Assembly: GCA_036399015.1 (NCBI GenBank)
Contig: DASWNW010000086.1
Span: 722 to 64,721 of the forward strand
DNA: 64,000 nt
Direction: 5' to 3'
From: Thermoanaerobaculia bacterium
GTDB lineage: Bacteria > Acidobacteriota > Thermoanaerobaculia > Gp7-AA8
Shown here piece after piece: positions 6,603 through 63,485 of the stretch. The position numbers and the translations under genes are program-made. The notes under the pieces were generated by a model. The model had not been told where the DNA came from, did no database searches, and was given only the letters and a program-made list of their open reading frames with translations. Numbering within the stretch: the first letter of the stretch is position 1; each line of letters begins with the position of its first letter.

Positions 6603-7174
6603 TGGGATGTCTTCCACTTTTCCTGAAGCTCTTTCTTGGTGGCGAAGAGGATCCACTTGGAGTTCCCCTCGCTGATGCCGAGGACCTGGCCGATCTCGGC
6701 GTGACTGAGTCCCTCGATCTCGAAGAGGGTGAAAACGCTGCGGCGCTGCTCGGGCAGCTCGTCGAGGAGCCGGCGCAGGGCGATGCGCTTCATGTCGTCG
6801 ACGCTGGCGCTGCTGCGCTCCAGCTCGTCGTCGATCGGCGTCTCCTCCACGCGCCGCTTGCGCTTACGGAGGATGTCGTAGCAGGTGTTGACGAGGATCC
6901 GGAACACCCAGGTGGCGAAGGAGGCCTCGCCGGTGAAGGTGGTGGCGGAGCGGTGCACCTTGAGGAAGGTCTCCTGCACCGCATCCTCGGCGTCGCTGCT
7001 GTTGCCGAGGTGGTTCCAGGCGATGCTCTTCATCCGGTCGCCGAAGCGGCGGTAGATCTCCTCGAACGCCCGCGAGTCGCCCGCCACGCAGGCCGACGCC
7101 AGCCGCTGGTCTTCGGCGTCCGGCGCGGCGGTCGCGGCGAGGTGCAGCATCGGTGTCATGGCGGCGTGGAGCAT
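6599..7174 (-). CDS. RNA polymerase ECF sigma factor (sigma-70 regions 2 and 4)
   Basis: 191 aa; AFEEIYRRF..., region 2 and region 4 HTH (LSHAEIGQVLGISEGNSK). Confidence 0.8.
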   Translation of the reverse strand: MLHAAMTPMLHLAATAAPDAEDQRLASACVAGDSRAFEEIYRRFGDRMKSIAWNHLGNSSDAEDAVQETFLKVHRSATTFTGEASFATWVFRILVNTCYDILRKRKRRVEETPIDDELERSSASVDDMKRIALRRLLDELPEQRRSVFTLFEIEGLSHAEIGQVLGISEGNSKWILFATKKELQEKWKTSQ

Positions 7175-7218: not shown

Positions 7219-7350
7219 GGTTGCTGGTTGCTGGTTGCTCGTGTCGGTTGTCAGTTGCTCGTTGTCAGTTGTCGGTTGTCGGTTGTCCGTGGAGTGTCGC
7301 CCGGGCGGGAACCCACGTCGACAACTGACAACCGACAACCGACAACACAA
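7219..7350. repeat. composite tandem-unit hairpin: 3x GTTGCTG units then long GTTGTCG/CGACAAC palindrome (stem ~27 bp)
   Basis: ggttgctggttgctggttgctc..gttgtcagttgtcggttgtcggttgtcc-loop-gacaactgacaaccgacaaccgacaac between fpg 3' end and ECF sigma start. Confidence 0.75.
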
Positions 7351-13584: not shown

Positions 13585-15003
13585 GTGGCGAACGGCACGG
13601 GTGAAGAGGGGACGCCCGCGCCGCGGACGAGCGCCGACTACACGATCGTGACGGAAGGGCCGGGCACGCGGCGCCCGTCCAACGCGAGCGAGCGCGAGCG
13701 ACGCTACCAGGAGCTGCTGCGCTCCGCGCCGCCGGGCGCGCCGCCGCCACCGCCGCCGCAACAGCCGGCGCCGTCGCTGCTCGACCGGATGGTCGCGCCG
13801 ATTGCGAACGCGCTGGGGATGCGCCAGAAGCCGCAGCCGCAGGCGCCGCCACCGCCCGTGCAGCCGCGGCAGGAGCGCGCCGCCGAAAAGCCGGGGACCA
13901 ATCCGCGGAACACCACCACGACCGATCCGAACGTCGACCCGAACGATCCCGACACCGACGTCGTCGCTCCGCAACTGATGTCGGTGGCCTTCAATCCGCC
14001 GGAGATCCAGGACGGGGGGGAGACCATCCTCACCATCCTGGCCAATGACAACCTCTCCGGCGTCCGCAGCGTCTCCGGCGTGATCGCCAGCCCGAGCGGC
14101 TCGATGCAGGGCTTCGCCTGCACGCGGGAGGGGGAGACGAACCAGTTCGTGACGCGGGTGGCGGTGCCGAAGGATGCGCCCTCGGGCGTGTGGCAGGTGA
14201 AGTACCTGACCATCCTCGACAACGCCAGCAACAGCGCGCACCTCAACGCCGCGCAGGGGGCGCTGCCGATGACGGCGCGGTTCACCGTCGCGTCGGCCGA
14301 TTCCGACGCCAGCGGTCCGCAGCTCAAGGCGGTCTGGCTCGACAAGCCGGCCATGCGCGCCGGCGACCGGAACGTGCTCTTCGTGCAGGCGGAGGACGAG
14401 AAGTCGGGCGTGTCGCTGGTGAGCGGCGTCTTCGTCAGCCCCAGCCGCACCGCGCGCATCGGCTTCGGCTGCCGCCTCGGCGGGACGGGGGCGTGGGAGT
14501 GCGCCGTGACACCGCCGACCTGCCTCGACTGCGGCGTCTGGAAGCTCGAGCAGATCCAGTTGCAGGACAAGGCCAACAACATGACCACCTTCCGCAACGA
14601 CAACCAGGTGGTGAGCGCGGTCGTGCTCGACATCGCGGGAGAGCGCTGCGACTCGGCGGCGCCGGTGGTGACGCAGTTCCTCCTCGCGCCGACCGTGGTG
14701 TCGAACGCGGAGCCGACGGTGATCCGTGTGCAGGCCACGGCGATGGACGACGGCGGCTGCGGCGTGGCCAGTCTGAGCGGGCTCGCGGTCCCGCCCGGCG
14801 GCATCGGCGGACAGCGGCGCTACATCACGTTCGAGCCGTCGCCCGACGGGCAGAACTTCACCGGGAAGCTGGAGATCCCGCAGTTCGCGGCGAAGGGGCA
14901 GTGGACGATCGCCTGGATCCAGGCCCTCGACAAGGGCCACAACCTGCGGGCGTACTCGGCGAACGAGCCGGTGGTGGCGAGGGCGACGTTCCGCGTGGAG
15001 TGA
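13585..15003 (+). CDS. Pro-rich, Cys-containing secreted/membrane-anchored protein of unknown function; true start probably upstream (~13447, non-canonical)
   Basis: ORF 13585..15003; in-frame upstream sequence encodes RRLPFLPLFFTVLGILFVAAVWL (signal-anchor) with no ATG/GTG/TTG. Confidence 0.5.
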   Translation: MANGTGEEGTPAPRTSADYTIVTEGPGTRRPSNASERERRYQELLRSAPPGAPPPPPPQQPAPSLLDRMVAPIANALGMRQKPQPQAPPPPVQPRQERAAEKPGTNPRNTTTTDPNVDPNDPDTDVVAPQLMSVAFNPPEIQDGGETILTILANDNLSGVRSVSGVIASPSGSMQGFACTREGETNQFVTRVAVPKDAPSGVWQVKYLTILDNASNSAHLNAAQGALPMTARFTVASADSDASGPQLKAVWLDKPAMRAGDRNVLFVQAEDEKSGVSLVSGVFVSPSRTARIGFGCRLGGTGAWECAVTPPTCLDCGVWKLEQIQLQDKANNMTTFRNDNQVVSAVVLDIAGERCDSAAPVVTQFLLAPTVVSNAEPTVIRVQATAMDDGGCGVASLSGLAVPPGGIGGQRRYITFEPSPDGQNFTGKLEIPQFAAKGQWTIAWIQALDKGHNLRAYSANEPVVARATFRVE

Positions 15004-15011
15004 CGGCCCCG

Positions 15012-15045
15012 TCTCTCCCTGGAGCGACGGGCTCTCAGCCCGTCG
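15012..15045. repeat. small palindromic element (CTCTGGAGCGACGGGCTCTCAGCCCGTC family) just after stop codon
   Basis: tctctccctggagcgacgggctctcagcccgtcg; same element at 22141, 26594, 30788, 63164. Confidence 0.7.
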
Positions 15046-15063
15046 GCATAGGCCGCGTCGGGC

Positions 15064-18599: not shown

Positions 18600-19552
18600 G
18601 AGCGGTTGGGATCGTAGCCGGTGTTGCCGCCGCCGGTGCCGCCCGTGCCGCCGGTGCCACCGGTACCGCTGGTGCCGCCGGTTCCACGGTAGTCGGCGCC
18701 GCCCGTACCACCCGTACCGCGATAGTCCGTGCCGCCCGTGCCGGCCGTGCCGCCGGTGCCGCGATAGTCGGTGCCGCGGTCGTAGCCCGGTCCGCGGTCA
18801 AAGTCCGCGCCGGCGACCGTGGTCGTCGTCTCATCCTTCCCGCGATTCACCGCCGCGTAGATCAGGCCTGCGCCGAGGGCGAGGGCCGCTACGCCGGCAG
18901 CAACCTTGGCCGGGTTCTCACGCGTGTACGACGTCACCTTGCTGCTCGAGCCCTTGAGGTAGTCGCGCGCCGTGTTGAGGTACTCGTCGACGTCGACGTT
19001 CTCGAACTGCGAGCGGAGGCTGCCGAGCAGGCCTTCGATGCCGCCGGCCTTGCTGAGCGACTGTCCGCAGTGCGTGCAGAAGTGGTCTTCCCCGGTGTCG
19101 GACGAGGAGCCGGTCGAGCCGGTGCCCGCCGTGCTGCCGCCGCCGTCGCCGACACCACCGCTGCCGCTGCCGCCACCGAGGCCGCTGCCAGCGAGGCCGC
19201 TGCTGCCGGTGCTGCCACCGAGGCCACTGCCACCGAGACCGCTGCTGCCGGTGCTGCCTCCGAGACCGCTGCCGCCGCTGCTGCCGCTGCTGCCGGAGCC
19301 GGCGCCACCGGAGCCATACGAGCCGCTGCCGCTGCCGCTGCCCGGGTTGAGCGAGCCGCCGGAGCTGCTGCCGCCGCCCGTTCCCGAGCTGCTGCCGCCG
19401 CTGCCGGTGGTCATGCCGCCGCCCGACGACATGCCGGTGCCGGTGCCGCCGGAGCCGTAGCCGGCCCCGGTGGACGTGCCGCCCGAGCCGCTGTTCCCTG
19501 TGGTTCCGCCGCTGATGCCGGAGATGGGGTCGTTAGGATCGTTCTGAGCCAT
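18596..19552 (-). CDS. Gly/Ser/Thr-rich low-complexity protein with DUF883 (ElaB/YqjD)-like C-terminal membrane anchor and DYRGTGGT repeats
   Basis: Start set at Met16 (19552) preceded by GGAGG RBS; ..YTRENPAKVAAGVAALALGAGLIYAAVNRG resembles ElaB/YqjD tail anchor. Confidence 0.5.
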   Translation of the reverse strand: MAQNDPNDPISGISGGTTGNSGSGGTSTGAGYGSGGTGTGMSSGGGMTTGSGGSSSGTGGGSSSGGSLNPGSGSGSGSYGSGGAGSGSSGSSGGSGLGGSTGSSGLGGSGLGGSTGSSGLAGSGLGGGSGSGGVGDGGGSTAGTGSTGSSSDTGEDHFCTHCGQSLSKAGGIEGLLGSLRSQFENVDVDEYLNTARDYLKGSSSKVTSYTRENPAKVAAGVAALALGAGLIYAAVNRGKDETTTTVAGADFDRGPGYDRGTDYRGTGGTAGTGGTDYRGTGGTGGADYRGTGGTSGTGGTGGTGGTGGGNTGYDPNRS

Positions 19553-20066: not shown

Positions 20067-20175
20067 GCAGTCGCAGAGTCGCAGAGTCGCAAAGTCGCAG
20101 AGGAGGGAGCGCAGCCTTTGAGCCTCTGACACTCTGAGACTCCGCGACTTTGAGACTCTGCGACTCTGCGACTAC
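20067..20175. repeat. tandem-unit hairpin repeat, unit GCAGAGTC / GACTCTGC, ~45-bp stem, in divergent promoter region
   Basis: cagtcgcagagtcgcagagtcgcaaagtcgcagagg-loop-cctctgacactctgagactccgcgactttgagactctgcgactctgcgact. Confidence 0.75.
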
Positions 20176-20184
20176 GATCCGGCC

Positions 20185-22128
20185 ATGAAACGGCTCATTG
20201 TCGTGCTCGCCCTGGCCGCCGCCGCCGCTCCCCTCATCGCCCAGACCCGCACCCAGAAGCCACCGCTCCACGGCGCGCACTGGATGGCCATCACGGGCAA
20301 GCCGCTCGCCGCGACCGCCGGCGCGATGATGTTCCAGAAGGGCGGCAACGCCGTCGACTCCGCCGCGGCGATGCTCGCCGCCACCTGCACCCTCTGGGAC
20401 ACCCTCGGCTGGGGCGGCGAGACGCAGGCGCTCATCTTCGACCCCCGCACGAAAAAGGTCATCGGCATCAACGCACTCGGCGTCGCCCCCTCCGGCGCCA
20501 CCGCCGACTACTACAAGTCGAAGGGGATGCAGTACCCGCCCGAGTACGGCCCGCTCTCCGCCGTCACTCCCGGCACGCCCGGCGGCCTGATGGTGATGCT
20601 GGCCGAGTACGGGACGCTGTCGCTGAAGGAGGTCCTCGCGCCGTCGATCCAGCTCGCCGACGGCTTCCCGATCGAGGCGCAGCTCGCGAACGGCATCGAG
20701 CGGCAGAAGTCGTGGCTCAAGCAGTGGCCCTATTCACGCGCCGTGATGCTGCCGCATGGTGGGGTGGCGCCCGCTTCGGGCGCCTCGTCGTCTGCGGCGG
20801 CCGGAGCGGCCGCCGCGCCACAGAGCATCACTCCGTCGCACGACGTCGTGACCACCGCTGCCGCCACCACGGGGCGCGAGGCGCCGCATCCCGGCGAGAT
20901 GTTCCGCCAGCCCGATCTCGCGGCGACGCTGCGGAAGCTCGTCGAGGCGGAGCAGCAGGCGCTCCAGCGCGGCAGGTCGCGCAAGGAGGCGATCTACGCC
21001 GCGTACGACCGCTTCTACAAGGGAGACATCGCGCAGGAGATCGCGCGCGGGACGCAGGAGCAGGGAGGGCTGATCACCGCCGCCGACCTCGCGAACTGGC
21101 GCGTGCGCACCGAGGAGCCGGTGAAGACCAGCTACAAAGGGATCGACGTCTACAAGCTGACGGTCTGGACGCAGGGGCCGTCGATGCTGCAGGCGCTGAA
21201 CATCCTCGAGAACTTCGACGTCAAGTCGATGGGCTACAACAGCGCGCGCTACATCCACACGCTCTACCAGGCGCTCAGCCTCGCCTACGCCGACCGCGAC
21301 TTCTACTACGGCGATCCCTACTTCCCGCCGGCGGAGCCGGTGGCCGGGCTGCTGTCGAAGGAGTACGCGCGCGAGCGGGCGAAGCTGGTGAACCCGGAGC
21401 GGAACGATCCGAACATCGGACCGGGCGATCCCTATCCGTTCCAGCGCGAGACGAACCCGTTCCTGGAGACGCTGCGCAACTGGAGCAAGACCGCCACCCA
21501 GCCGCGCACGTCGGCGGCGTTGCAGTCGTTCGACGAGTCGTTCCGCCTCGGCACGACGTCGATCGAGGCGGCGGACGAGCAGGGGTGGGTGGTGTCGATC
21601 ACGCCGAGCGGCGGCTGGGTGCCGGCGGTGATCGCCGGCCGCACCGGCGTCGGTCTCTCGCAGCGGGCGCAGAGCTTCGACACCGACCCGGCGCAGAACC
21701 CGTACAACGTGATCGAGCCGGGCAAGCGCCCGCACGTGACGCTCACGCCGACGCTCGCCTTGAAGGACGGCGCGCCCTACCTTGCCTTCGCGGTGCAGGG
21801 GGGCGACACGCAGGACCAGAACCTCCTGCAGTTCTTCCTCAATGTCGTGGAGTTCGGGATGACCCCGCAGGAGGCGGCCGAGGCGGCGAACTTCAATACG
21901 TTCCAGGTGCGCAAATGGCTCGGCGACCGCCAGTCGATCCCCGGCCGCATCCTCCTGCACGAGGCGACGCCGCCGTGGGTGCGCAACGACCTGCGCAGGA
22001 TGGGCTACGACATGACGTTCGAGGAGCGGACCTCGGGCCCGATCAACGCGATTCTCTTCGACCGCAAGCACGGCACGATGTGGGGCGGCAGCTCGAACCA
22101 TGGGGAGGACTACGGGATCGCCTGGTAA
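20185..22128 (+). CDS. ggt: gamma-glutamyltransferase (Ntn-hydrolase)
   Basis: 647 aa; signal peptide; catalytic Thr region GTTSIEAADEQG; GGT family length and motifs. Confidence 0.85.
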   Translation: MKRLIVVLALAAAAAPLIAQTRTQKPPLHGAHWMAITGKPLAATAGAMMFQKGGNAVDSAAAMLAATCTLWDTLGWGGETQALIFDPRTKKVIGINALGVAPSGATADYYKSKGMQYPPEYGPLSAVTPGTPGGLMVMLAEYGTLSLKEVLAPSIQLADGFPIEAQLANGIERQKSWLKQWPYSRAVMLPHGGVAPASGASSSAAAGAAAAPQSITPSHDVVTTAAATTGREAPHPGEMFRQPDLAATLRKLVEAEQQALQRGRSRKEAIYAAYDRFYKGDIAQEIARGTQEQGGLITAADLANWRVRTEEPVKTSYKGIDVYKLTVWTQGPSMLQALNILENFDVKSMGYNSARYIHTLYQALSLAYADRDFYYGDPYFPPAEPVAGLLSKEYARERAKLVNPERNDPNIGPGDPYPFQRETNPFLETLRNWSKTATQPRTSAALQSFDESFRLGTTSIEAADEQGWVVSITPSGGWVPAVIAGRTGVGLSQRAQSFDTDPAQNPYNVIEPGKRPHVTLTPTLALKDGAPYLAFAVQGGDTQDQNLLQFFLNVVEFGMTPQEAAEAANFNTFQVRKWLGDRQSIPGRILLHEATPPWVRNDLRRMGYDMTFEERTSGPINAILFDRKHGTMWGGSSNHGEDYGIAW

Positions 22129-22140
22129 GGGCGGCGTATT

Positions 22141-22176
22141 CGCCGGGCTGAGAGCCCGGCGCTCCAGAGAGACCGA
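22141..22176. repeat. small palindromic element (inverted orientation) after ggt stop
   Basis: cgccgggctgagagcccggcgctccagagagaccg = reverse complement of CTCTCTGGAGCGCCGGGCTCTCAGCCCGGCG. Confidence 0.7.
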
Positions 22177-22178
22177 AA

Positions 22179-22218
22179 CCCGAGGAACTCCGAGGAACTC
22201 CGAGGAACCCGAGGAACC
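22179..22218. repeat. four direct CCGAGGAAC units (one arm only)
   Basis: cccgaggaactccgaggaactccgaggaacccgaggaacccc. Confidence 0.65.
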
Positions 22219-22219
22219 C

Positions 22220-26579: not shown

Positions 26580-26602
26580 TCAGTCTCTGAGGTTTCTCTG
26601 GA

Positions 26603-26636
26603 GGGACGGGCGTTCAGCCCGTCCCTTTTCTTTTTG
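26603..26636 (+). terminator. intrinsic terminator of the M4 protease gene built from the small palindromic element
   Basis: GGGACGGGCGTTCAGCCCGTCCC followed by TTTTCTTTTTG. Confidence 0.6.
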
Positions 26637-26697
26637 TTCACACCTCGCGGTTTCGTCCCGGACGGCGGTGCGCTCCAACAAACCAAAGGAGACACCC

Positions 26698-27465: not shown

Positions 27466-27473
27466 GCGAGGCG

Positions 27474-27563
27474 GTTCCTCGGAGTTCCTCGGCAGTTCCT
27501 CGGGTTCCTCAGCCGACCTCCCCCGAGGAACCCCGAGGAACCCCGAGGAACCCCGAGGAACCC
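27474..27563. repeat. GTTCCTCGG x4 / CCGAGGAAC x4 hairpin repeat after tonB
   Basis: ggttcctcggagttcctcggcagttcctcgggttcctc-loop-ccccgaggaa x4. Confidence 0.75.
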
Positions 27564-29424: not shown

Positions 29425-32160
29425 ATGCGACGAGCCGTCACCCTCGCGATCCTCCTCCTCTCCCTCTCCCTCCACGCCCTCCCTCCAAACGTCGAAAAGA
29501 TCGACTCCTTCCGCGGCATCGACCAGTACCGCCTCAAGTCCAACGACATGACCATCCTGCTGGTGCCGAACCACGCCAGCCCGGTCGTCACGTTCATGGT
29601 GGTCTACCACGTCGGCTCGCGGAACGAGGCGCCGGGGAACACCGGCTCGGCGCACCTGCTCGAGCACATGATCTTCAACAAGTCGACCGAGAACTTCGGC
29701 CGCGCCAAGGGCCACAAGACGTTTCAGGAAGTGCTCTATGAGGCGGGCGCCGACTATTCGTCGACGAACATGACCACCTGGAACGACCGGATGAACGGCT
29801 ACTCCACGCTGCCGTCCGACAAGCTGGAGCTGGCCATGAAGATCGAGGCCGACCGGCTCGGCCGCGGCCTCATCCTCGACAGCGAGCGGCAGTCGGAGAT
29901 GTCGGTCGTCCGCAACGAGTACGAGATCGGCGAGAACGACCCGTCGAACGCGCTCTGGAAGAACGTCATCGCCACGGCCATCCAGGCGCACCCCTATCAC
30001 TGGGACACGATCGGCTACCGCTCCGACATCGAGGGCGTGACGACCGAGAAGCTGCGCGAGCACTACAAGACGTTCTTCTGGCCCGACAACGCGGAGGCCA
30101 TCCTGGTCGGCGACTTCGACACGGAGCAGGCGCTGGCGATGTTCGACCGCGAGTTCGGCGCCTTCAAGAAGAGCGACAAGCCGATCCCGCAGGTGATCAC
30201 CGTCGAGCCGCCGCAGGAAGGGGAGCGCCGCGTCGTCGTGCAGCGCCCCGGCACGGTCGGCATCGTGCAGATCGGCTACATGCGTCCCGGCGCGCTCGAT
30301 CCCGACTTCATCGTCCTCGACGTGCTCAGCTCCATCCTCGGCGACGGCGTGAACTCGCGCCTCTACCGTGCGCTCGTCGAGAAGCAGCTCGCCACCAGCG
30401 TCAGCTCGCACAACTTCACGCTCCGCGATCCCTACCCGCTGATGATCGAGGCGAACCTCGCCGCCGGAAAGGCCCACACCGACGTGGAGCAGGGCATCAA
30501 GGCCGCGGTCGCCGAGGTCGTCGCCAAAGGGGTGACGGACGAAGAGGTGAAACGCGCGCAGCAGCAGATCGAGGTCGCCGTCATCCGCAGCCGCGACGGC
30601 ACCTTCAACTACGCCTCCAACCTCGGCGAGTCGGTGGCGTCGACGAACTGGAAGTGGTTCCTGACCTACGTCGACAACGTCAAGGCCGTGACCGCCGCGG
30701 ATGTGAAGCGCGTCGCGTCGGCCTACCTGACGCCGGAGCGGGCGACCGTCGGCTGGTTCGTCCCGGGGACCGCCGTGAAGCCCGTCCCCTCTGGAGCGAC
30801 GGCCTCTCAGGCCGTCGCCGCGAAGACGGAGAGCCGGGCTGAGAGCCCGGCCGTGCAGAGAGAGACCAAACCCGCCGCCGGCTCCTTCGCCCAGCGCACC
30901 ACCCGCCGCGTCCTCCCGAACGGCATCATCGTCGACGTCGTCGAGAACCACGCCGTCCCCACCGTCGCCATCCGCGCCCTCGCGTTCGCGGGCGACATCG
31001 CCGCGCCTGCCGGGAAGCCGGCCGTCCCCGCGCTCACCGCGAAGATGCTCGCCCGCGGTACGAAGTCGCGCACGAAGGAGCAGATCGGCAAGCTGCTCGA
31101 CGACGTCGGCGCGACCCGCTCCTACGCGACTAACCTCACCGAGGCGCTGGTGAGCGCGAACGGGATGTCGCGCGACCTGCCGCTGCTGCTGGAAGTCCTC
31201 GGCGACGAATTGAAGAACCCCGCCTTCACGGCCGAGGAGCTGGAGAAGGCGAAGAACGAGCTCGAGAACGACTACCTGCGCGCCGACGATCAGACCAGCG
31301 CCCGCGCGATGCAGCGCCTCAGCCAGCTCGTCTACCGTGAGAACCATCCGTACTACGCCTTCGGCCGGGCGAAGCTCGTCGAGAGCGCGAAAGCGGCGAC
31401 CGCGGACGACCTCCGCGGCTTCCATCGCGCCCGCTACGCCGGCGCGGGGCTGATCGTGGCCATCGTCGGCGACGTCGACACCGCGAAGACGCTGGCGCTG
31501 GTCGAGAAGCAGCTCGGCGGCCTGCCGAAAGGGGAGCGGATCTCGTTCGCGCAGCTCCCACGCACCACTCCCGCCGCGAAGGGCGTGCGCGAGGCGGTGA
31601 CGATGCCCGGCAAGGCGAACATGAACATCGTCATGGGCACCGCCTCCGGTCTCCGCCGCAACGATCCCGACTACGAGGCCGCGCTCATCGCCAACGCCGC
31701 GCTCGGGCAGACGGCGCTCTCGTCACGCATCGGCCGCCGCGTGCGCGACACCGAGGGCTTGTCGTACAACCTCGCGTCGCGCTTCTGGAACAGCGACGTG
31801 CTCGACGGCGTCTGGTGGGTGAACGTCAACGTCGCGCCGCAGAACCTCGAGAAGGCGATGAAGTCGACCTACGAGGAGATCGTGAAGTTCGGCCGCGAGG
31901 GGGTCACCGACGAAGAGGTGGCGGCGCAGAAGAGCTTCTTCGCCGGCAACTACAAGGTCGGCCTCGGCTCGAACGCCGGCGTCGCCACGGCCCTCGTGAC
32001 GGCGGAGAAGTTCGGCTTCGGCCCCCGCTACCTCGACGAGTTTCCCGCGCGCATCAACGCCGTGACGAAGGACCAGGTGAACGCCGCCATGCGCAAGTAC
32101 CTCTTCCCCGACCGGCTGCACGTGATCGTGGCGGGAGATCTGGAGAAGGTGCCTGATTAG
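29425..32160 (+). CDS. secreted M16 (pitrilysin/insulinase) family zinc peptidase, double-module (911 aa), carrying in-frame palindromic-element insertion in the inter-module linker
   Basis: Signal peptide; inverted zinc motif HLLEHMIF (HxxEH); second M16-like half; linker residues ..PSGATASQAVAAKTESRAESPAVQRETKP.. are encoded by two copies of the palindromic element. Confidence 0.85.
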   Translation: MRRAVTLAILLLSLSLHALPPNVEKIDSFRGIDQYRLKSNDMTILLVPNHASPVVTFMVVYHVGSRNEAPGNTGSAHLLEHMIFNKSTENFGRAKGHKTFQEVLYEAGADYSSTNMTTWNDRMNGYSTLPSDKLELAMKIEADRLGRGLILDSERQSEMSVVRNEYEIGENDPSNALWKNVIATAIQAHPYHWDTIGYRSDIEGVTTEKLREHYKTFFWPDNAEAILVGDFDTEQALAMFDREFGAFKKSDKPIPQVITVEPPQEGERRVVVQRPGTVGIVQIGYMRPGALDPDFIVLDVLSSILGDGVNSRLYRALVEKQLATSVSSHNFTLRDPYPLMIEANLAAGKAHTDVEQGIKAAVAEVVAKGVTDEEVKRAQQQIEVAVIRSRDGTFNYASNLGESVASTNWKWFLTYVDNVKAVTAADVKRVASAYLTPERATVGWFVPGTAVKPVPSGATASQAVAAKTESRAESPAVQRETKPAAGSFAQRTTRRVLPNGIIVDVVENHAVPTVAIRALAFAGDIAAPAGKPAVPALTAKMLARGTKSRTKEQIGKLLDDVGATRSYATNLTEALVSANGMSRDLPLLLEVLGDELKNPAFTAEELEKAKNELENDYLRADDQTSARAMQRLSQLVYRENHPYYAFGRAKLVESAKAATADDLRGFHRARYAGAGLIVAIVGDVDTAKTLALVEKQLGGLPKGERISFAQLPRTTPAAKGVREAVTMPGKANMNIVMGTASGLRRNDPDYEAALIANAALGQTALSSRIGRRVRDTEGLSYNLASRFWNSDVLDGVWWVNVNVAPQNLEKAMKSTYEEIVKFGREGVTDEEVAAQKSFFAGNYKVGLGSNAGVATALVTAEKFGFGPRYLDEFPARINAVTKDQVNAAMRKYLFPDRLHVIVAGDLEKVPD
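30788..30868. repeat. two inverted copies of small palindromic element inside M16 peptidase CDS (in frame)
   Basis: ctctggagcgacggcctctcaggccgtcgcc ... gagccgggctgagagcccggccgtgcagagagag. Confidence 0.7.
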
Positions 32161-32240
32161 TTACTGGTTGCTGGTTGCTGGTTCCTTGTGAGTCGTTGAG
32201 CGCGGGCAAACCAGCAACCAGCAACTAGCAACCAGCAACG
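32161..32240. repeat. GTTGCTG-unit tandem hairpin repeat between convergent genes; right arm overlaps last codons of methyltransferase
   Basis: ttactggttgctggttgctggttcc-loop-aaaccagcaaccagcaactagcaaccagcaac. Confidence 0.75.
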
Positions 32241-32734: not shown

Positions 32735-32799
32735 GGGCCTACAATACCCGCATGACCATCCGCGGAATCATCCAGGCGCTCACCCGTGGGGAGGGAAAG

Positions 32800-33237
32800 A
32801 TGCTCGAGCCCGGCCAGCAGGCACCCGACTTCGACGTACGCGATCACCAGGGGAACAACGTCCGCCTCCGCGACCTTCGCGGCAAGAAGGTCGTGCTCTG
32901 GTTCTACCCGAAGGCCGACACACCCGGTTGAACGCGGGAAGGTTCCGGGTTCCGGGACCTCATCGGCGAGTACGAGCAGAAGAACACCCGCGTCCTCGGC
33001 GTCAGCTTCGACGACGAGCAGGCCAACCGGCGCTTCGCGGAAAAGTACAACTTCCCCTTCCCGCTCCTCTGCGACACCGACCGCTCGATCGGCGTGGCGT
33101 ATGGCGCCGCCGAGTCGGGGAAGGACGAGTACGCGCGCCGCATCGCGTACGTCATCGACGAGGAAGGGAAGATCGCGCAGGCGCATGCGAAGGTGGATGC
33201 GTCGAGCTACCCGCGGGAGCAACTGAAGAGTTTGTAA
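32800..33237 (+). CDS. bcp: Bcp/PrxQ-type peroxiredoxin with in-frame TGA (32929-32931) at the peroxidatic Cys position: candidate selenocysteine-containing peroxiredoxin
   Basis: ATG 32800 with GGGGAGGGAAAG RBS; N-term MLEPGQQAPDF..KKVVLWFYPKADTPG-[TGA]-TREGSGFRDL..VLGVSFDDEQANRRFAEKYNFPFPLLCDTD.. colinear with Bcp; frame intact to TAA at 33235; hairpin AGGUUCCGG-GUU-CCGGGACCU 9 nt after UGA. Confidence 0.7.
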
Positions 33238-33302
33238 CACTCTCCCTGCAACCAATTCGCTACGGCTACGTTTAAACGCTCCAGACAACGAGGAGTGTTC
33301 AG

Positions 33303-34540: not shown

Positions 34541-34621
34541 GTTGCTGGTTGCTGGTTGCTCGTGAACTCCCAGCCACACGGCGCCATAGCAACCAGCAAC
34601 CAGTAACCAGTAACCAGCAAC
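34541..34621. repeat. GTTGCTG-unit tandem hairpin repeat inside efflux operon (between adaptor and ATPase genes)
   Basis: gttgctggttgctggttgctcgtg-loop-caaccagcaaccagtaaccagtaaccagcaac. Confidence 0.75.
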
Positions 34622-36632: not shown

Positions 36633-36722
36633 GTTGCTGGTTGCTGGTGGCTGGTTCCTTGTGAGGTGTTCCTCCACGCACCCACTGCGTCACGAGCAAC
36701 AAGCAACGAGCAACCAGCAACC
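36633..36722. repeat. GTTGCTG-unit tandem hairpin repeat between the two permease genes
   Basis: gttgctggttgctggtggctggttcc-loop-gagcaacaagcaacgagcaaccagcaacc. Confidence 0.75.
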
Positions 36723-53848: not shown

Positions 53849-53925
53849 TGCCGGCGCCCGGCAAATCGTAAAGTCACACGGCTCGCCTCGCGCCTCGCGA
53901 GGCGGGCCAACTGCCCCCACCTCAC

Positions 53926-54186
53926 GATGGATATGGGGTCATGTCCATCGCCACGGCCGCGACGATGTGAGCGCGTCCGCCCGTACTCGCGAGGGACATG
54001 GGGTGATGTCCCTCGCCGCTGCCGCGACGACGTGAGTGCGTCCGTCCGTGCTCGCGAGGGACATGGGGTGATATCCATCGCGGCTGTCGCGACGATCTGC
54101 GTGACGCCGCCGCGGCGCAAATCGAGGTCGAGTGACCTCGAGCGCGACGTCCGTGGGACTGACGATGGACATCCCCCCATGTCCCT
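53926..54186. repeat. array of four 24-bp palindromes (GAGGGACAT-N6-ATGTCCCTC type) within ~64-bp tandem units upstream of serine-hydrolase gene
   Basis: P1 53926, P2 53990, P3 54056, P4 54163; inter-palindrome segments also mutually similar (gccgcgacgatgtgagcgcgtccg..ctcgcgag). Confidence 0.7.
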
Positions 54187-58981: not shown

Positions 58982-59070
58982 GTTGTCGGTTGTCGGTTCT
59001 CAGTTGTCCGGGGCTCCTCGTCACCCCAACACCGCAGACAACCGACAACCGACAACCGACAACCGACAAC
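58982..59070. repeat. GTTGTCG / CGACAAC tandem-unit hairpin repeat in divergent promoter region; followed by direct repeat cgcaggccgcgcc x2
   Basis: gttgtcggttgtcggttctcagttgtcc-loop-gacaaccgacaaccgacaaccgacaaccgacaacc. Confidence 0.75.
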
Positions 59071-59121
59071 CGCGGCCGCAGGCCGCGCCCGCAGGCCGCG
59101 CCGCCTGCTACCATCTTCCCG

Positions 59122-59797: not shown

Positions 59798-62482
59798 GTG
59801 GAGTCGATGCTGCGCTTCGCCCGCGCGTCGAGCGATTTCCTCGAGACGCCGGCGCTCAGCGACCGCACCACCCTCGCCGTCTTCGACGACGAGCCGACGC
59901 GGCAGCAGCCGGCGACCGATCCGCGCCGCATCGACGACACCCGCTTCATCCCCGGCGACGTCGTCGCCGGCCGCTACCGCATCGTCGGCCTCCTCGGCCG
60001 CGGCGGGATGGGGGAGGTCTACCGCGCCGACGACCTCAAGCTCGCGCAGCCGGTCGCGCTGAAGTTCCTCGCGGAGTCGCTGTCGTCGAACGGCGCCGCG
60101 CTGGCGCGCTTCCACCGCGAGGTCAGCCTCTCGCGCCAGATCTCCCACCGCCACGTCTGCCGCGTCTACGACATCGGCGAGCACGCCGGGATGCACTTCC
60201 TGTCGATGGAGTACGTGCGCGGCGAGGAGCTGTCGTCGCTGCTCAAGCGCATCGGCCGCCTCCCGCTCGACAAGGCGCTCGAGACGGCGCGGCAGTTGTG
60301 CGCCGGCCTCGCCGCCATCCACGCCGCCGGCGTGCTTCATCGCGATCTGAAGCCGGCCAACGTGATGATCGACGAGCACGGCGACGTGCGCATCACCGAC
60401 TTCGGCATCGCCGCGCTCGCCGAGGGGGTGAGCGGGCGGGAGGCGATGATCGGCACGCCGGTGTACATGTCGCCCGAACAACTCTCGGGCGGCGAGCTCT
60501 CCGTGCGCAGCGACATCTACGCCCTCGGGCTGGTGCTGTACGAGACCTTCACCGGCAAGCGGCCGTTCGCCGCGACGACGCTGCCCGACATCATCCGCGA
60601 CCGCCTCGGCGAGACCACGCCCACCAGCCCCTCCGACTGGATCGCCGACCTCGATCCGCTCGCCGAGCGGGTGATCCTGCGCTGCCTCGAGAAGGATCCC
60701 GACCGCCGCCCCGCCTCGGCGCTGCACGTCGCGGCCGCGCTTCCGGGAGGCGATCCGCTCGCGGCCGCACTGGCGGCGGGGGAGACACCGTCGCCGCAGA
60801 TGGTCGCCGCGGCGCAGAAGGAGGGTGGGCTGCGGCCGCTCGCCGCGGTGCTGCTGCTGGCCTCCATCTTCCTCATCTTCGTAGCCGGCGCGCTCGTCTC
60901 GCACCGGTCGTCGCTGCACCACTACCTCGGGCTGGAGCTGTCGCGCGAGCTGCTGCAGGCGCGGGCGGTCGACATCATCCGCGAGGCCGGCTACACCGCG
61001 CCGCCCGCCGACCGCGCCTCCGGGTTCATGGCCGACAACGAGCTGTTCATCCGCCTCCGCGACGGCCAGCAGACCGAGTCGTGGGAGCGTTTTCGCGCGG
61101 CGCCGCTGCCGCTCCTTCCGTACTGGTACCGGCAGAGCCCGCGCCCACTCGTGCCGTACGACGTCTGGGAGGTCAGGGACTTCAACCCGCCCAATGACAG
61201 CGCCGGAATGGTGCGCCTCCGTCTCGACCTGAAGGGCCGCCTGCTCTTCTTCGAGGCCGTACCGCCGCAGGATGACGCCGCACCGCGCGGAGCGAGGCCC
61301 GCGCCGTGGGCCCGTTTCTTCGAGCGCGCCGGCCTGACGATGACCGCGTTCCGGCCGGCGGACCCGCGGTGGACGCCGCCGCACCACAGCGATCGGCGGC
61401 TGGCCTGGACCGGCGTCCATCCGACCCGGCCGGAACTGCCACTGCGCGTCGAGGCGGCGTCGTACCGGGGAGTGCCGGTGTGGTTTCAGGTGATCTTCCC
61501 CTGGCAGGAGGCGGACGGCGCGCTGGCGGAGGCCTCGCTGGACATGAGCCGGCCGTTCCTGATGGCGCTGATCTGCTTCTACTTCGCCGCGATAGCGCTC
61601 GCGGCGCTGCTGGCGTGGAAGAACGTCCGCCTCGGACGAGGCGACCGGCGCGGGACATGGCGCCTCATGGCCTTCGTCTTCGTCTCCCGCCTCATCTACT
61701 GGCTGTTCATGTTCCACCACGTCGCCGCTCTCGGGGAGATCGACGCGTTCGTGACCGCGTTGCAGTCGGCGCTCTACTGGTCGGGGGTGATCGGATTGCT
61801 CTACATGGCGCTGGAGCCGTTCATTCGCCGCCGGTGGCCGGAGCGGCTGATCTCCTGGAGCCGTCTACTCCGCGGCGATCTGCGCGACCCGCTCGTGGGC
61901 CGCGACGTGCTGATCGGCGGCGCGCTCGGCGTGACCGCGGACCTCTCCTCCAACCATCTCTCCGCCCTCGTCCCGCAACTCTTCGGCTGGACGATTCGCA
62001 TGCCGATCCCCCATTCCGATCTGCTCTACCGGCACGGCCTCGACGGCGCGCGCGGCTTCGTCGCGCTGGTGATGAACCAGACCGCCGCGGCGATCATGTT
62101 TCCGCTGATCATGCTGTCGATCGTGCTCTTCTTCGCGATGCTCACCCGCCGGAACGCGCTCGGCTTCGCGGTGACGTGGCTGCTCGTCTACCTCGTGCTC
62201 AACCTCAACTCCATCGACCCGTCGCCGGTGCGCTACGTCATGGGTCTGATCTTCCCCACACTCATCTTCTTCACCCTGTACCGGTTCGGACTCCTCGCGC
62301 TGATGTCGCTGGTCTTCTTCAACCACGTCTCGGTGTTCTACCCGGTCACCACCGACCTCGGCGCCTGGTACGCCACGTCGTACCTGCTGCACCTCGCGCT
62401 GCTCACGGCGATCGCGCTGTACGCGTTCCGCGTCTCGCTGGCGGGGCAGAAGCTGATGCAGCGCTCGCTGTTCGATGACTGA
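59798..62482 (+). CDS. ECF-sigma-associated Ser/Thr protein kinase with large C-terminal polytopic membrane domain; real N-terminus probably begins ~59690 (no canonical start)
   Basis: Kinase subdomains GRGGMGEVY..ALK, HRDLKPANV, DFG, MSPEQ; ~10 predicted TM helices after residue ~350; conserved ERWRRIDGLF..ALEL motif lies upstream of first GTG. Confidence 0.8.
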   Translation: MESMLRFARASSDFLETPALSDRTTLAVFDDEPTRQQPATDPRRIDDTRFIPGDVVAGRYRIVGLLGRGGMGEVYRADDLKLAQPVALKFLAESLSSNGAALARFHREVSLSRQISHRHVCRVYDIGEHAGMHFLSMEYVRGEELSSLLKRIGRLPLDKALETARQLCAGLAAIHAAGVLHRDLKPANVMIDEHGDVRITDFGIAALAEGVSGREAMIGTPVYMSPEQLSGGELSVRSDIYALGLVLYETFTGKRPFAATTLPDIIRDRLGETTPTSPSDWIADLDPLAERVILRCLEKDPDRRPASALHVAAALPGGDPLAAALAAGETPSPQMVAAAQKEGGLRPLAAVLLLASIFLIFVAGALVSHRSSLHHYLGLELSRELLQARAVDIIREAGYTAPPADRASGFMADNELFIRLRDGQQTESWERFRAAPLPLLPYWYRQSPRPLVPYDVWEVRDFNPPNDSAGMVRLRLDLKGRLLFFEAVPPQDDAAPRGARPAPWARFFERAGLTMTAFRPADPRWTPPHHSDRRLAWTGVHPTRPELPLRVEAASYRGVPVWFQVIFPWQEADGALAEASLDMSRPFLMALICFYFAAIALAALLAWKNVRLGRGDRRGTWRLMAFVFVSRLIYWLFMFHHVAALGEIDAFVTALQSALYWSGVIGLLYMALEPFIRRRWPERLISWSRLLRGDLRDPLVGRDVLIGGALGVTADLSSNHLSALVPQLFGWTIRMPIPHSDLLYRHGLDGARGFVALVMNQTAAAIMFPLIMLSIVLFFAMLTRRNALGFAVTWLLVYLVLNLNSIDPSPVRYVMGLIFPTLIFFTLYRFGLLALMSLVFFNHVSVFYPVTTDLGAWYATSYLLHLALLTAIALYAFRVSLAGQKLMQRSLFDD

Positions 62483-63485
62483 CCGCCTGCACAGCCACCT
62501 CCTCGCCGGAAACGGTCTCGCCACGCCGCACGACGTCGTCGCCCACTTCGGCGCCATGCAGGCGCAGGACTACCTCGGCGCGCTCTGGGCCGTCGGCGTG
62601 CGCATGAAGGGCGACGCGACGGAAGGGGAGATCGAGCGGGCGATCGCGGAGCGGAGGATCGTCCGCTGCTGGCCGATGCGCGGCACGCTGCACTTCGTCG
62701 CCGCGGAAGACGTGCGCTGGATGCTCGAGTTGCTCGCGCCGCGCGTCCTGCGCCGCCACCGCACGCGCCTGGAGCGCGACTTCGGTCTCGACACCCGCAC
62801 GCTCCGCCGCTGCCGCACGGCCGCCGAGCGGACGCTCCGCGGCGGCAACGCATCGACGCGCCCGGAGCTGTACGCCGCGTTCGAGGCGGCGGGGATCGCC
62901 ACGAAGGGGGGCCGCGGCCTCCACATCCTCTTCGCGCTGGCGCACGAGCGCGTGCTCTGCTTCGGCGCCCGCCGCGGCAAACAGCCGGCGTTCGTCCTCC
63001 TCGACGAGTGGGTCGCGCCGTCGAAGCCGAAGCCGCGCGAGGAGGCGCTCGCGGAGCTGGCGACGCGCTACTTCCGCAGCCACGCCCCCGCCACCCCCGC
63101 CGACTTTGCCTGGTGGTCCGGCCTCCCGCTGAAGGAAGCCAAGGAGGCGATCGATCTCTCTGGACCGACGGCCTCTCAGGCCGTCGCAAAGGTGAAATCC
63201 CTCCACCTCCTCCCCCCCTTCGACGAATACACCGTCGCCTACAAAGACCGCACGGCGATTCTCGATCCAAGCTTCGCAAAACGCGTCAACGCCGGCGGCG
63301 GCATCCTCAACGCCGTCGTAATCATCGACGGCACCGTCACCGGCACCTGGAAACGCACCCTCCGCCGTGACACGGTGGACGTGACCCTCGCCCCCTTCCG
63401 GCCGCTTACGGCCCGCGAGACGCGCGCCGTCGACCGCGAGATCGCGCGCTACGCGGCCTTCCTCGGCAGTAGGATCGCGACGTGA
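62475..63485 (+). CDS. winged-helix (HTH_42/DUF1006) AlkZ/YcaQ-family putative DNA glycosylase, with in-frame palindromic-element insertion
   Basis: 336 aa; QAQ (Q-phi-Q) motif in AMQAQDYLGALWA; DUF1006-like length; residues ..LSGPTASQAVAKV.. are encoded by the palindromic element. Confidence 0.55.
   Translation: MTDRLHSHLLAGNGLATPHDVVAHFGAMQAQDYLGALWAVGVRMKGDATEGEIERAIAERRIVRCWPMRGTLHFVAAEDVRWMLELLAPRVLRRHRTRLERDFGLDTRTLRRCRTAAERTLRGGNASTRPELYAAFEAAGIATKGGRGLHILFALAHERVLCFGARRGKQPAFVLLDEWVAPSKPKPREEALAELATRYFRSHAPATPADFAWWSGLPLKEAKEAIDLSGPTASQAVAKVKSLHLLPPFDEYTVAYKDRTAILDPSFAKRVNAGGGILNAVVIIDGTVTGTWKRTLRRDTVDVTLAPFRPLTARETRAVDREIARYAAFLGSRIAT
63164..63187. repeat. small palindromic element inside AlkZ/YcaQ-like CDS
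   Basis: ctctctggaccgacggcctctcaggccgtcgc. Confidence 0.7.

Follow-up and report, generated by a model that had tools for sequence, protein, structure and literature searches.

A probable REP/REPIN family of uncultured Thermoanaerobaculia with copies carried in frame inside enzyme genes

The stretch of DNA analyzed here, referred to throughout as the window, comprises 64,000 nucleotides (nt) of a Thermoanaerobaculia bacterium (Acidobacteriota; GenBank assembly GCA_036399015.1, contig DASWNW010000086.1, positions 722 to 64,721 of the forward strand) and contains a palindromic repeat of about 35 nt, with copies both just downstream of genes and in frame within them. We propose, with a probability of roughly 80%, that it represents a repetitive extragenic palindrome (REP) family of an uncultured Thermoanaerobaculia lineage, including the inverted REP doublets known as REPINs, some copies of which are tolerated in frame inside protein-coding genes. 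Directly observed are the repeat family, its doublet form, the covariation of its stem, its occurrence on the flanks of genes for a REP-associated tyrosine transposase (RAYT) in relatives, the in-frame sites, the absence of the element from most orthologs and the predicted disorder of the segments that it encodes.

Three parts make up each copy, namely a pyrimidine run (TCTCT), a head reading TGGAG(C)G and a G+C stem of 9–10 base pairs (bp) closed by a CTC loop, the unit as a whole being (T)CTCTGGAGCG followed by the hairpin. The head is single-stranded and conserved as (C/G)TGGAGCG, with the TCTCT run in front of it in this genome; its TGGAG core is nearly invariant and reads GTGGAG or CTGGAG, unlike GTAG (GTAGG does occur in a related doublet, that of L120). 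Stems occur in the window as GACGGGC, GCCGGGC and GACGGCC, each perfectly self-complementary, and folding them shows that the 7-bp stem proposed by an earlier sequence-only reading was too short. Folded as DNA, the hairpins range in energy from -10.8 to -14.5 kcal/mol and in z-score from -3.8 to -5.9. Searching the window with a 19-nt hairpin query and up to three mismatches gave seven matches, against 0.14 expected from dinucleotide shuffles, and a covariance model trained on 36 family members recovered six clear copies at 30–55 bits together with a seventh, decayed one. There are thus seven copies in 64 kb and one more just beyond the end of the window; an Rfam scan of the whole window matched no family. 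The copies and the genes that host them are as follows.

15012 to 15046, forward strand: extragenic REP copy, TCTCTCCCTGGAGCG-ACGGGCTCTCAGCCCGT-CG; -12.2 kcal/mol, z-score -4.3, 54.9 bits.
20185 to 22128, forward strand: gamma-glutamyltranspeptidase gene, host of a decayed copy.
20792 to 20830, reverse strand: probable decayed REP, CTCTGTGGCGCG-GCGGCCGCTCCGGCCGC-CG; 28.4 bits, E about 2e-4 on a rough calibration.
22141 to 22182, reverse strand: extragenic REP copy, GGGTTTCGGTCTCTCTGGAGCG-CCGGGCTCTCAGCCCGG-CG; 50.2 bits.
26591 to 26628 (to 26640 with the T-run), forward strand: REP-like hairpin with the loop GTTCA, followed by a T-run; 35.5 bits.
29425 to 32160, forward strand: four-domain M16 (pitrilysin-type) peptidase gene, 911 residues, identified by Pfam; host of an inverted REP doublet.
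30788 to 30818, forward strand: left arm of the M16 doublet, stem GACGGCC/GGCCGTC, encoding PSGATASQAVA; -14.5 kcal/mol, 49 bits.
30833 to 30874, reverse strand: right arm of the M16 doublet, hairpin GCCGGGCTCTCAGCCCGGC with the decayed head TCTCTCTGCAC, encoding ESRAESPAVQRETKP; 30.6 bits.
62475 to 63485, forward strand: gene of the AlkZ/YcaQ-like DNA glycosylase family, 336 residues, identified by Pfam; host of one REP.
63155 to 63187, forward strand: intragenic REP of the AlkZ-like gene, TCTCTGGACCG-ACGGCCTCTCAGGCCGT-CG, encoding LSGPTASQAVA; 43.6 bits.

All the places at which the sequence-only reading had put the element do carry it. Three copies, those at 15012, 22141 and 26591, lie 9–20 nt downstream of stop codons. 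The first begins 9 nt past the stop of the gene at 13585-15003, an open reading frame (ORF) whose G+C content at third codon positions (GC3) is 0.95, unlike that of the overlapping ORF. The second is located between convergent genes, 13 nt past the gamma-glutamyltranspeptidase stop. The third, 3' of an M4 peptidase gene, had been taken for a terminator formed by the element (placed at 26594) and is indeed terminator-like, with 12 pairs and a T tail (~26600-26640) that no other copy possesses, the rest having no U-run of the kind seen in intrinsic terminators. Hairpins with other stem sequences stand at the same position in relatives (at 2831 in L003 and 6981 in L005); hence, the 26591 copy may be a terminator that is either REP-derived or merely REP-like. 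Outside the window, the same genome carries a canonical REP, CTCCCTGGAGCGACGGGCTCTCAGCCCGTCG, at 11710-11735 of L123 (reverse strand; approximately window coordinates 64184-64209), 7 nt past the stop of an AAA_33-like gene, the next one after the AlkZ-like gene.

The repeat is by no means confined to this window. Scanning one genome per species with the pattern TGGAGCGNCGGNCTCTNAGNCCGNCG returned at least 108 matching stretches, and the 80 of these with listed record titles all belong to metagenome-assembled genomes (MAGs) of Thermoanaerobaculia/Acidobacteriota. Thermoanaerobaculia MAG DNA totaling about 0.8 Mb contains at least 189 copies of this 26-nt pattern, 102 of which form 51 close pairs; all but one of the pairs (50/51) are (+,-) inverted doublets with heads outward and gaps mostly of 5–18 nt, the very form taken by the two copies in the M16 gene. 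The stem is preserved through covariation: partners at the free N positions of the pattern are complementary in 141/143 and 140/143 matches, in alternative Watson–Crick states, and a count over the stem finds 98.8% of cells paired, with double-sided changes at five of nine pairs, which none of 500 shuffles reached. The bulk of the copies (162/189) are not classed as intragenic. Many contigs matched in the genome scan end at a copy or a few bases from one, and the repeats may break up the assembly of such genomes. Further TGGAG-headed REP families are present in relatives, some of them within called genes (L119 at 6793-6850 and 21246, L121 at 9641 and 16052, L005 at 7868, and several MAG loci); they include GTGGAGCGGCGGGCTTCAGCCCGCCG, TGGAGT-GCGGCGA-CGCCAG-TCGCCGC and a GTGGAG-GACAGGCAATCCTGCCTGTCC family with one doublet inside an M20 peptidase gene and one copy inside a prephenate dehydratase gene.

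Turning to the copies within genes, the inter-module linker of the M16 peptidase holds two in inverted orientation, a loop of the AlkZ-like protein holds one and a loop of gamma-glutamyltranspeptidase holds one decayed copy, all of them in frame. As claimed beforehand, both sense copies (the M16 left arm and that of AlkZ) share a frame, in which the first G of GACGGCC falls at codon position 3, and encode TASQAVA. This agreement fits a modest family-wide bias (9/16) but was rejected as meaningful on its own, all three sense frames being open. Heads have decayed in intragenic copies, GGAGCG having become GCACGG in the M16 right arm and GGACCG in AlkZ; the relative L003 retains an intact right-arm head, CTCTCTGGAGA, in its M16 gene. 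Predicted structures place the inserts in low-confidence coil. To elaborate, the AlphaFold model of the M16 peptidase (mean pLDDT, the predicted local distance difference test score, of 83) shows coil at residues 452-484, with block values of 32, 23 and 27; the residues that the REPs encode, 454-482, are wholly contained in this disordered segment. In the AlkZ-like model (mean pLDDT 90), REP residues 228-238 cover the end of the helix at 219-229 and part of the coil at 230-242, and the block 231-240, at 66, is the lowest internal one. The decayed copy at 20792 occupies a variable loop of gamma-glutamyltranspeptidase that is 6–7 residues shorter in two orthologs (alignment with L005 and L119).

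The element is patchily present among orthologs, the one indirect sign that its copy number may change over time. The M16 region from VGWFVP to SFAQRTTR is a hypervariable, indel-rich linker dominated by A, P, S and T, and the doublet, with a recognizably homologous spacer, is common only to the 89% (L003) and 82% identical relatives. REPs are absent from an 83% relative, the linker is only 10 residues long in a 78% relative, and others have unrelated linker sequence. In three further lineages the linker contains REPs of other types, read in the same frame and located at almost the identical codon, namely a single copy of GTGGAG-GACAGGCA...TGCCTGTCC, a doublet of TGGAGCGGCGGGCTTCAGCCCGCCG with perfect 25-nt arms in L121 and the GTAGG-headed doublet of L120; in all, the M16 linker has four different REP types across four lineages, patchily distributed on a neighbor-joining tree. 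All 120 M16 orthologs are single proteins of 865–935 residues with or without the element, on which ground we rejected a gene fusion, in which two adjacent M16 genes would have been joined by a stop-free REP spacer. Linkers of several of these orthologs (P0026, P0030, P0064, P0005, P0012, P0037, P0038, P0046) contain recurring peptides, VILSEAKDL, SLAHARD, PEARRDLA and GQAGGPHHT, which look like translations of further repeat families.

For the AlkZ-like gene, a 93% identical relative contains a version of the element nearer to the consensus (GGTCTCTCTGGAGCG...). In orthologs of 74% identity or below, the sequence at the site is unrelated but equally long, the element having taken the place of loop sequence with no lengthening. 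Partial replacement of a similar kind is seen in a related MAG, in the gene for an LCAT-like hydrolase, and a pair of orthologous GT4 glycosyltransferases displays two REP subfamilies at one site, with loops that differ by 1 nt and the frame restored downstream. In the 93% AlkZ relative (L116, ~880-910), a poly-C run located a few codons past the REP is longer by one C, which shifts the frame and reflects either a mistake in the assembly or a genuine pseudogene.

Across the family, we classed a copy as intragenic if it had an open frame of at least 40 codons on each side, GC3 above 0.75 and GC1 greater than GC2 (G+C at first and second codon positions) on both flanks. By this ORF-based estimate, which is not a curated annotation, 27/189 copies (~14%), at 18 sites distributed over 16 genes, are in frame within ORFs, and at most of the 18 sites Pfam domains flank the insert on both sides or span it. 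The Pfam-backed hosts include prolyl oligopeptidase, bacterial alpha-2-macroglobulin, YkuD transpeptidase, PEP carboxylase, the LCAT-like hydrolase and SLT transglycosylase; two GT4 glycosyltransferases with the REP at the interdomain linker in both; a UvrD/AddA-type helicase with two sites, one occupied by a doublet and the other by a single copy; a Ser/Thr kinase with the copy between the kinase domain and a membrane segment; and a two-domain ABC ATPase with the copy between its domains. A polyA-polymerase-family gene and a large ORF with an M1-peptidase domain have Pfam domains on one side of the insert only, and one host ORF has no Pfam hit. Five of the six frames of the element are stop-free and all five are used, the sixth containing TGA; hence, an intact reading frame, correctly noted for the window copies by the sequence-only reading, is in itself unremarkable. 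The commonest frame, G-A-T-G-S-Q-P-V, accounts for 9/16 independent sense-orientation intragenic copies, a modest bias that fits a filter for linker-like residues. Taken together, the ortholog comparison (inserts restricted to the closest M16 relatives and the 93% identical AlkZ), the wider search and the low-confidence coil predicted for both inserts support the earlier suggestion of a mobile or recombinogenic mini-element accommodated in surface loops.

The likely engine of the proposed mobility is found in relatives. The syntenic relative L003, the M16 peptidase of which is 89% identical, encodes a Y1 transposase of 158 residues. On NCBIfam NF047646, the REP-associated tyrosine transposase equivalog (cutoff 80), this protein reaches 110 bits; it has a Pfam Y1_Tnp hit and falls below the IS200 cutoff (28 bits vs 55). 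It bears an HVHLIV motif and a C-terminal Tyr, and its best match in the PDB is TnpArep of E. coli (4ER8). There are also weak PDB matches to chains annotated only 'transposase', which we take to be ISDra2 TnpA of the IS200/IS605 family. Inverted doublets of GTGGAGCGGCGGGCTCTTAGCCCGCCG border the L003 gene on both flanks. On a soil contig (L114), a RAYT of 63% identity has CCATCTGGAGCGACGGGCTCT(T/C)AGCCCGTCG on its flanks, the subfamily to which the window copies belong, and a 57% relative (L115) has its own palindrome type on both sides. A metagenome scan for relatives of the RAYT yielded only two short contigs.

On the analogy of characterized REP/RAYT systems, a single-copy HUH/Y1 RAYT would most likely be what generates the repeats and mobilizes them, in the form of single-stranded DNA hairpins. 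Copies occur singly or, in the REPIN arrangement, as heads-outward inverted doublets with hairpins 5–18 nt apart. Most copies persist just downstream of genes; some may land in, or recombine into, DNA for disordered linkers or surface loops and survive there as translated segments, the sites of this kind in the window being the M16 inter-module linker and the loops of the AlkZ-like protein and gamma-glutamyltranspeptidase. Since the five stop-free frames encode small or hydrophilic residues, copies in such DNA would not destroy the protein. We infer, then, that the mobility is RAYT-mediated and that the inserts are translated and neutral.

Several points weigh against this scenario. No RAYT was found in the 64-kb window by tblastn with the relative's RAYT, nor in the ~10 kb beyond its end; a RAYT of this very genome is therefore putative. 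The L003 RAYT is flanked by a G-type subfamily (GTGGAGCGGCGGG) and not by the C/A-type of L003's own M16 gene, and the head is (C/G)TGGAG instead of the canonical GTAG. Simple transposition does not predict replacement at similar length, as in AlkZ and the LCAT-like gene, a pattern that suggests recombination, conversion or subsequent deletions. No empty-versus-filled pair close enough to define insertion boundaries or target sequence was found, and when the intergenic region around 22141 was aligned to syntenic L005 for this purpose the spacers proved too diverged. Lastly, conservation of the hairpins in the M16 linker exceeds what neutrality would lead one to expect, and the view of the inserts as neutral passengers is possibly incomplete as a result. 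Specifically, the left arm is identical at 33/33 nt between L003 and L004, against 69% identity at third codon positions gene-wide, and the core of the right hairpin is the same in the window, L003 and L004 within an otherwise hypervariable linker. Relative to these, the left arm of the window has exactly two, complementary, changes (GGC>GCC, CCC>GCC) that leave the stem paired and render the M16 hairpin identical to that of the AlkZ copy. Such conservation and paired changes point either to selection for the hairpin or to its renewal from other copies, through conversion or re-insertion.

These observations leave room for a more dynamic scenario, which we advance tentatively and with more doubt than conviction: the four REP types of the M16 linker, the two subfamilies at the GT4 site and the hairpin conservation with its compensatory pair could mean that REP-bearing linker sites are landing pads, rewritten by RAYT or by REP-to-REP conversion such that linkers carry the current subfamily of the genome, with the frame restored each time and hairpins kept by more than drift. 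If true, a domesticated transposase system would continuously remodel the disordered segments of ordinary enzymes.

Further down the scale, we consider it unlikely that the hairpins are selected as DNA or RNA structures, stabilizing or terminating mRNAs 3' of genes and serving as translational pause sites between modules within them, a notion compatible in itself with a transposon origin. The intragenic copies would in that case be under selection and no mere tolerated passengers. The M16 conservation and the two pairing-preserving changes speak in its favor, as do the extragenic copies 9–20 nt past stops and the terminator-like 26591 copy. Gene conversion from other copies would explain the conservation and the paired changes equally well, however, and most M16 and AlkZ orthologs manage without any hairpin, one M16 linker being of 10 residues; moreover, heads decay in the intragenic copies and the host genes are functionally unrelated.

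Much less probable again is that the repeats are miniature inverted-repeat transposable elements (MITEs) of an ordinary DDE insertion sequence, with terminal inverted repeats and target-site duplications, or products of metagenome misassembly at repeats. Inverted doublets do superficially resemble terminal inverted repeats, and repeats can cause chimeric contigs. Yet the units are of ~35 nt and function as singles, no target-site duplication was seen at the window copies that were read, and the associated gene is a Y1/HUH RAYT. As for misassembly, both flanks of each insertion come from the same orthologous gene, and two independent assemblies, one from ENA and one from JGI, both contain the M16 protein in identical form and, in the DNA, the same copies of the element, which leads us to reject an assembly artifact. 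Finally, that the intragenic matches are ancestral coding sequence whose likeness to the palindrome is coincidental or a product of codon or composition bias, for which one might invoke the similar linker and loop lengths of orthologs with and without the element and the ease with which high G+C yields palindromes and open frames, is refuted by matches of 26–33 nt with perfect stems where 0.14 are expected and by the same element in 16 unrelated genes, besides the unrelated nucleotides of orthologs at the sites and covariance-model scores of 44–49 bits for the M16 left arm and AlkZ and 30.6 bits even for the decayed right arm.

The REP/REPIN–RAYT system proposed here comes from an uncultured class of Acidobacteriota and has an unusually high share of putatively translated copies. 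One practical corollary concerns gene calling and protein clustering: peptides such as GATGSQPV, RRAESPSLQ, WSDGLSARR and LERRALSPS, which recur in unrelated MAG proteins, should be read as repeat-derived and not as domains. The in-frame copies also constitute a natural experiment on the hairpin-coding sequence that enzyme linkers and loops tolerate, and allow a test of whether REP populations homogenize their intragenic copies.

The window has other features worth recording. Downstream of the M16 gene, an ORF for a BCP/PrxQ-type peroxiredoxin (32752-33240, forward strand) has a TGA at 32929-32931, at the position of the peroxidatic cysteine (..VVLWFYPKADTPG*TREGSGF..), with good homology continuing beyond it; gene callers cut the ORF to 59 residues here and to 50–59 residues in two relatives. 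Judging by its sequence, it is probably a selenocysteine peroxiredoxin. Short-period tandem arrays occur at 7242-7287, 32209-32239, 34588-34621, 36692-36721, 59037-59072, 22177-22219, 27470-27563 and 20069-20173, two of them (22177-22219 and 32209-32239) in intervals that separate called genes. Their units are heptamers (AACCAGC, AGCAACC, GACAACC, TGTCGGT), the decamer CCGAGGAACT and octamers; one array of the decamer abuts the REP at 22141, its complement is found at 27470-27563, and L005 carries similar GTTGCTGGTTGTT arrays. There is, in addition, a 65-nt tandem repeat at 53921-54096 (2.7 copies, 85% matches), and G+C-rich arrays at 18629-18777 and 19137-19295, with periods of 9, 18, 27 and 42 (GCCGCCGGT and similar), probably encode, on one of their strands, a Gly-rich repeat protein.

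How, then, does the element relate to known systems? With the 'peel and paste' transposons of the IS200/IS605 type it has in common a transposase of the Y1/HUH fold that recognizes DNA hairpins; the Thermoanaerobaculia repeats differ in being non-autonomous and far shorter than an insertion sequence, and their RAYT scores below the IS200 cutoff. The sequence-only reading had likened the element to Rickettsia palindromic elements (RPEs), and RPE-1 palindromes are reportedly (Ogata and colleagues, in 2000) inserted in frame in many unrelated genes and tolerated at the protein surface. The likeness holds for in-frame behavior alone: RPE-1 is of 100–150 bp, is not known outside Rickettsia and has no known transposase partner, and a resemblance in sequence is not to be expected, whereas the present element has a unit of ~35 nt, a doublet of ~87 nt and an Acidobacteriota host, and so falls outside RPE-1.

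Far closer are the REP/REPIN–RAYT systems, the biology of which is established (PMC3116915, PMC5581495). Like those of E. coli and Pseudomonas (Nunvar 2010; Bertels & Rainey 2011, PMC3116915; TnpArep 4ER8), the Thermoanaerobaculia element is a short G+C palindrome with a single-stranded tag and a high copy number. It further resembles them in its inverted doublets, its location mostly just downstream of genes and, in relatives only, a repeat-flanked RAYT above the NCBIfam cutoff. It departs from them in host phylum, in its (C/G)TGGAG tag as against GTAG and in the ~14% of copies that are intragenic by the ORF-based estimate, the REPs of the classic systems being known as almost entirely extragenic.

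Intragenic REPs in frame were themselves cataloged in 2013 from Opitutus terrae, Thauera and Thioalkalivibrio, along with RPE-4 and RPE-6 of Rickettsia conorii (Di Nocera et al. 2013, PMC3733652). That catalog comprises GTAG/CGTC-tagged singles and dimers encoding 10–30 residues (20–30 for dimers) of known proteins, UvrD-type helicases included; it accepts a GTGG head variant for GTAG-20 of O. terrae and proposes neutrality through location in flexible linkers or loops (PMC3733652). The in-frame singles and dimers described here, again in known proteins such as UvrD-type helicases, are therefore of an already known type, this behavior being published for REPs of other phyla; they belong to other sequence families and another phylum. 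Less expected in the Thermoanaerobaculia family is the intragenic share of ~14%, as are two features that set it apart from the catalog, namely the inserts that replace loop sequence instead of adding to it, and the different REP subfamilies, an apparent turnover, at orthologous coding sites such as the M16 linker and the GT4 interdomain linker.

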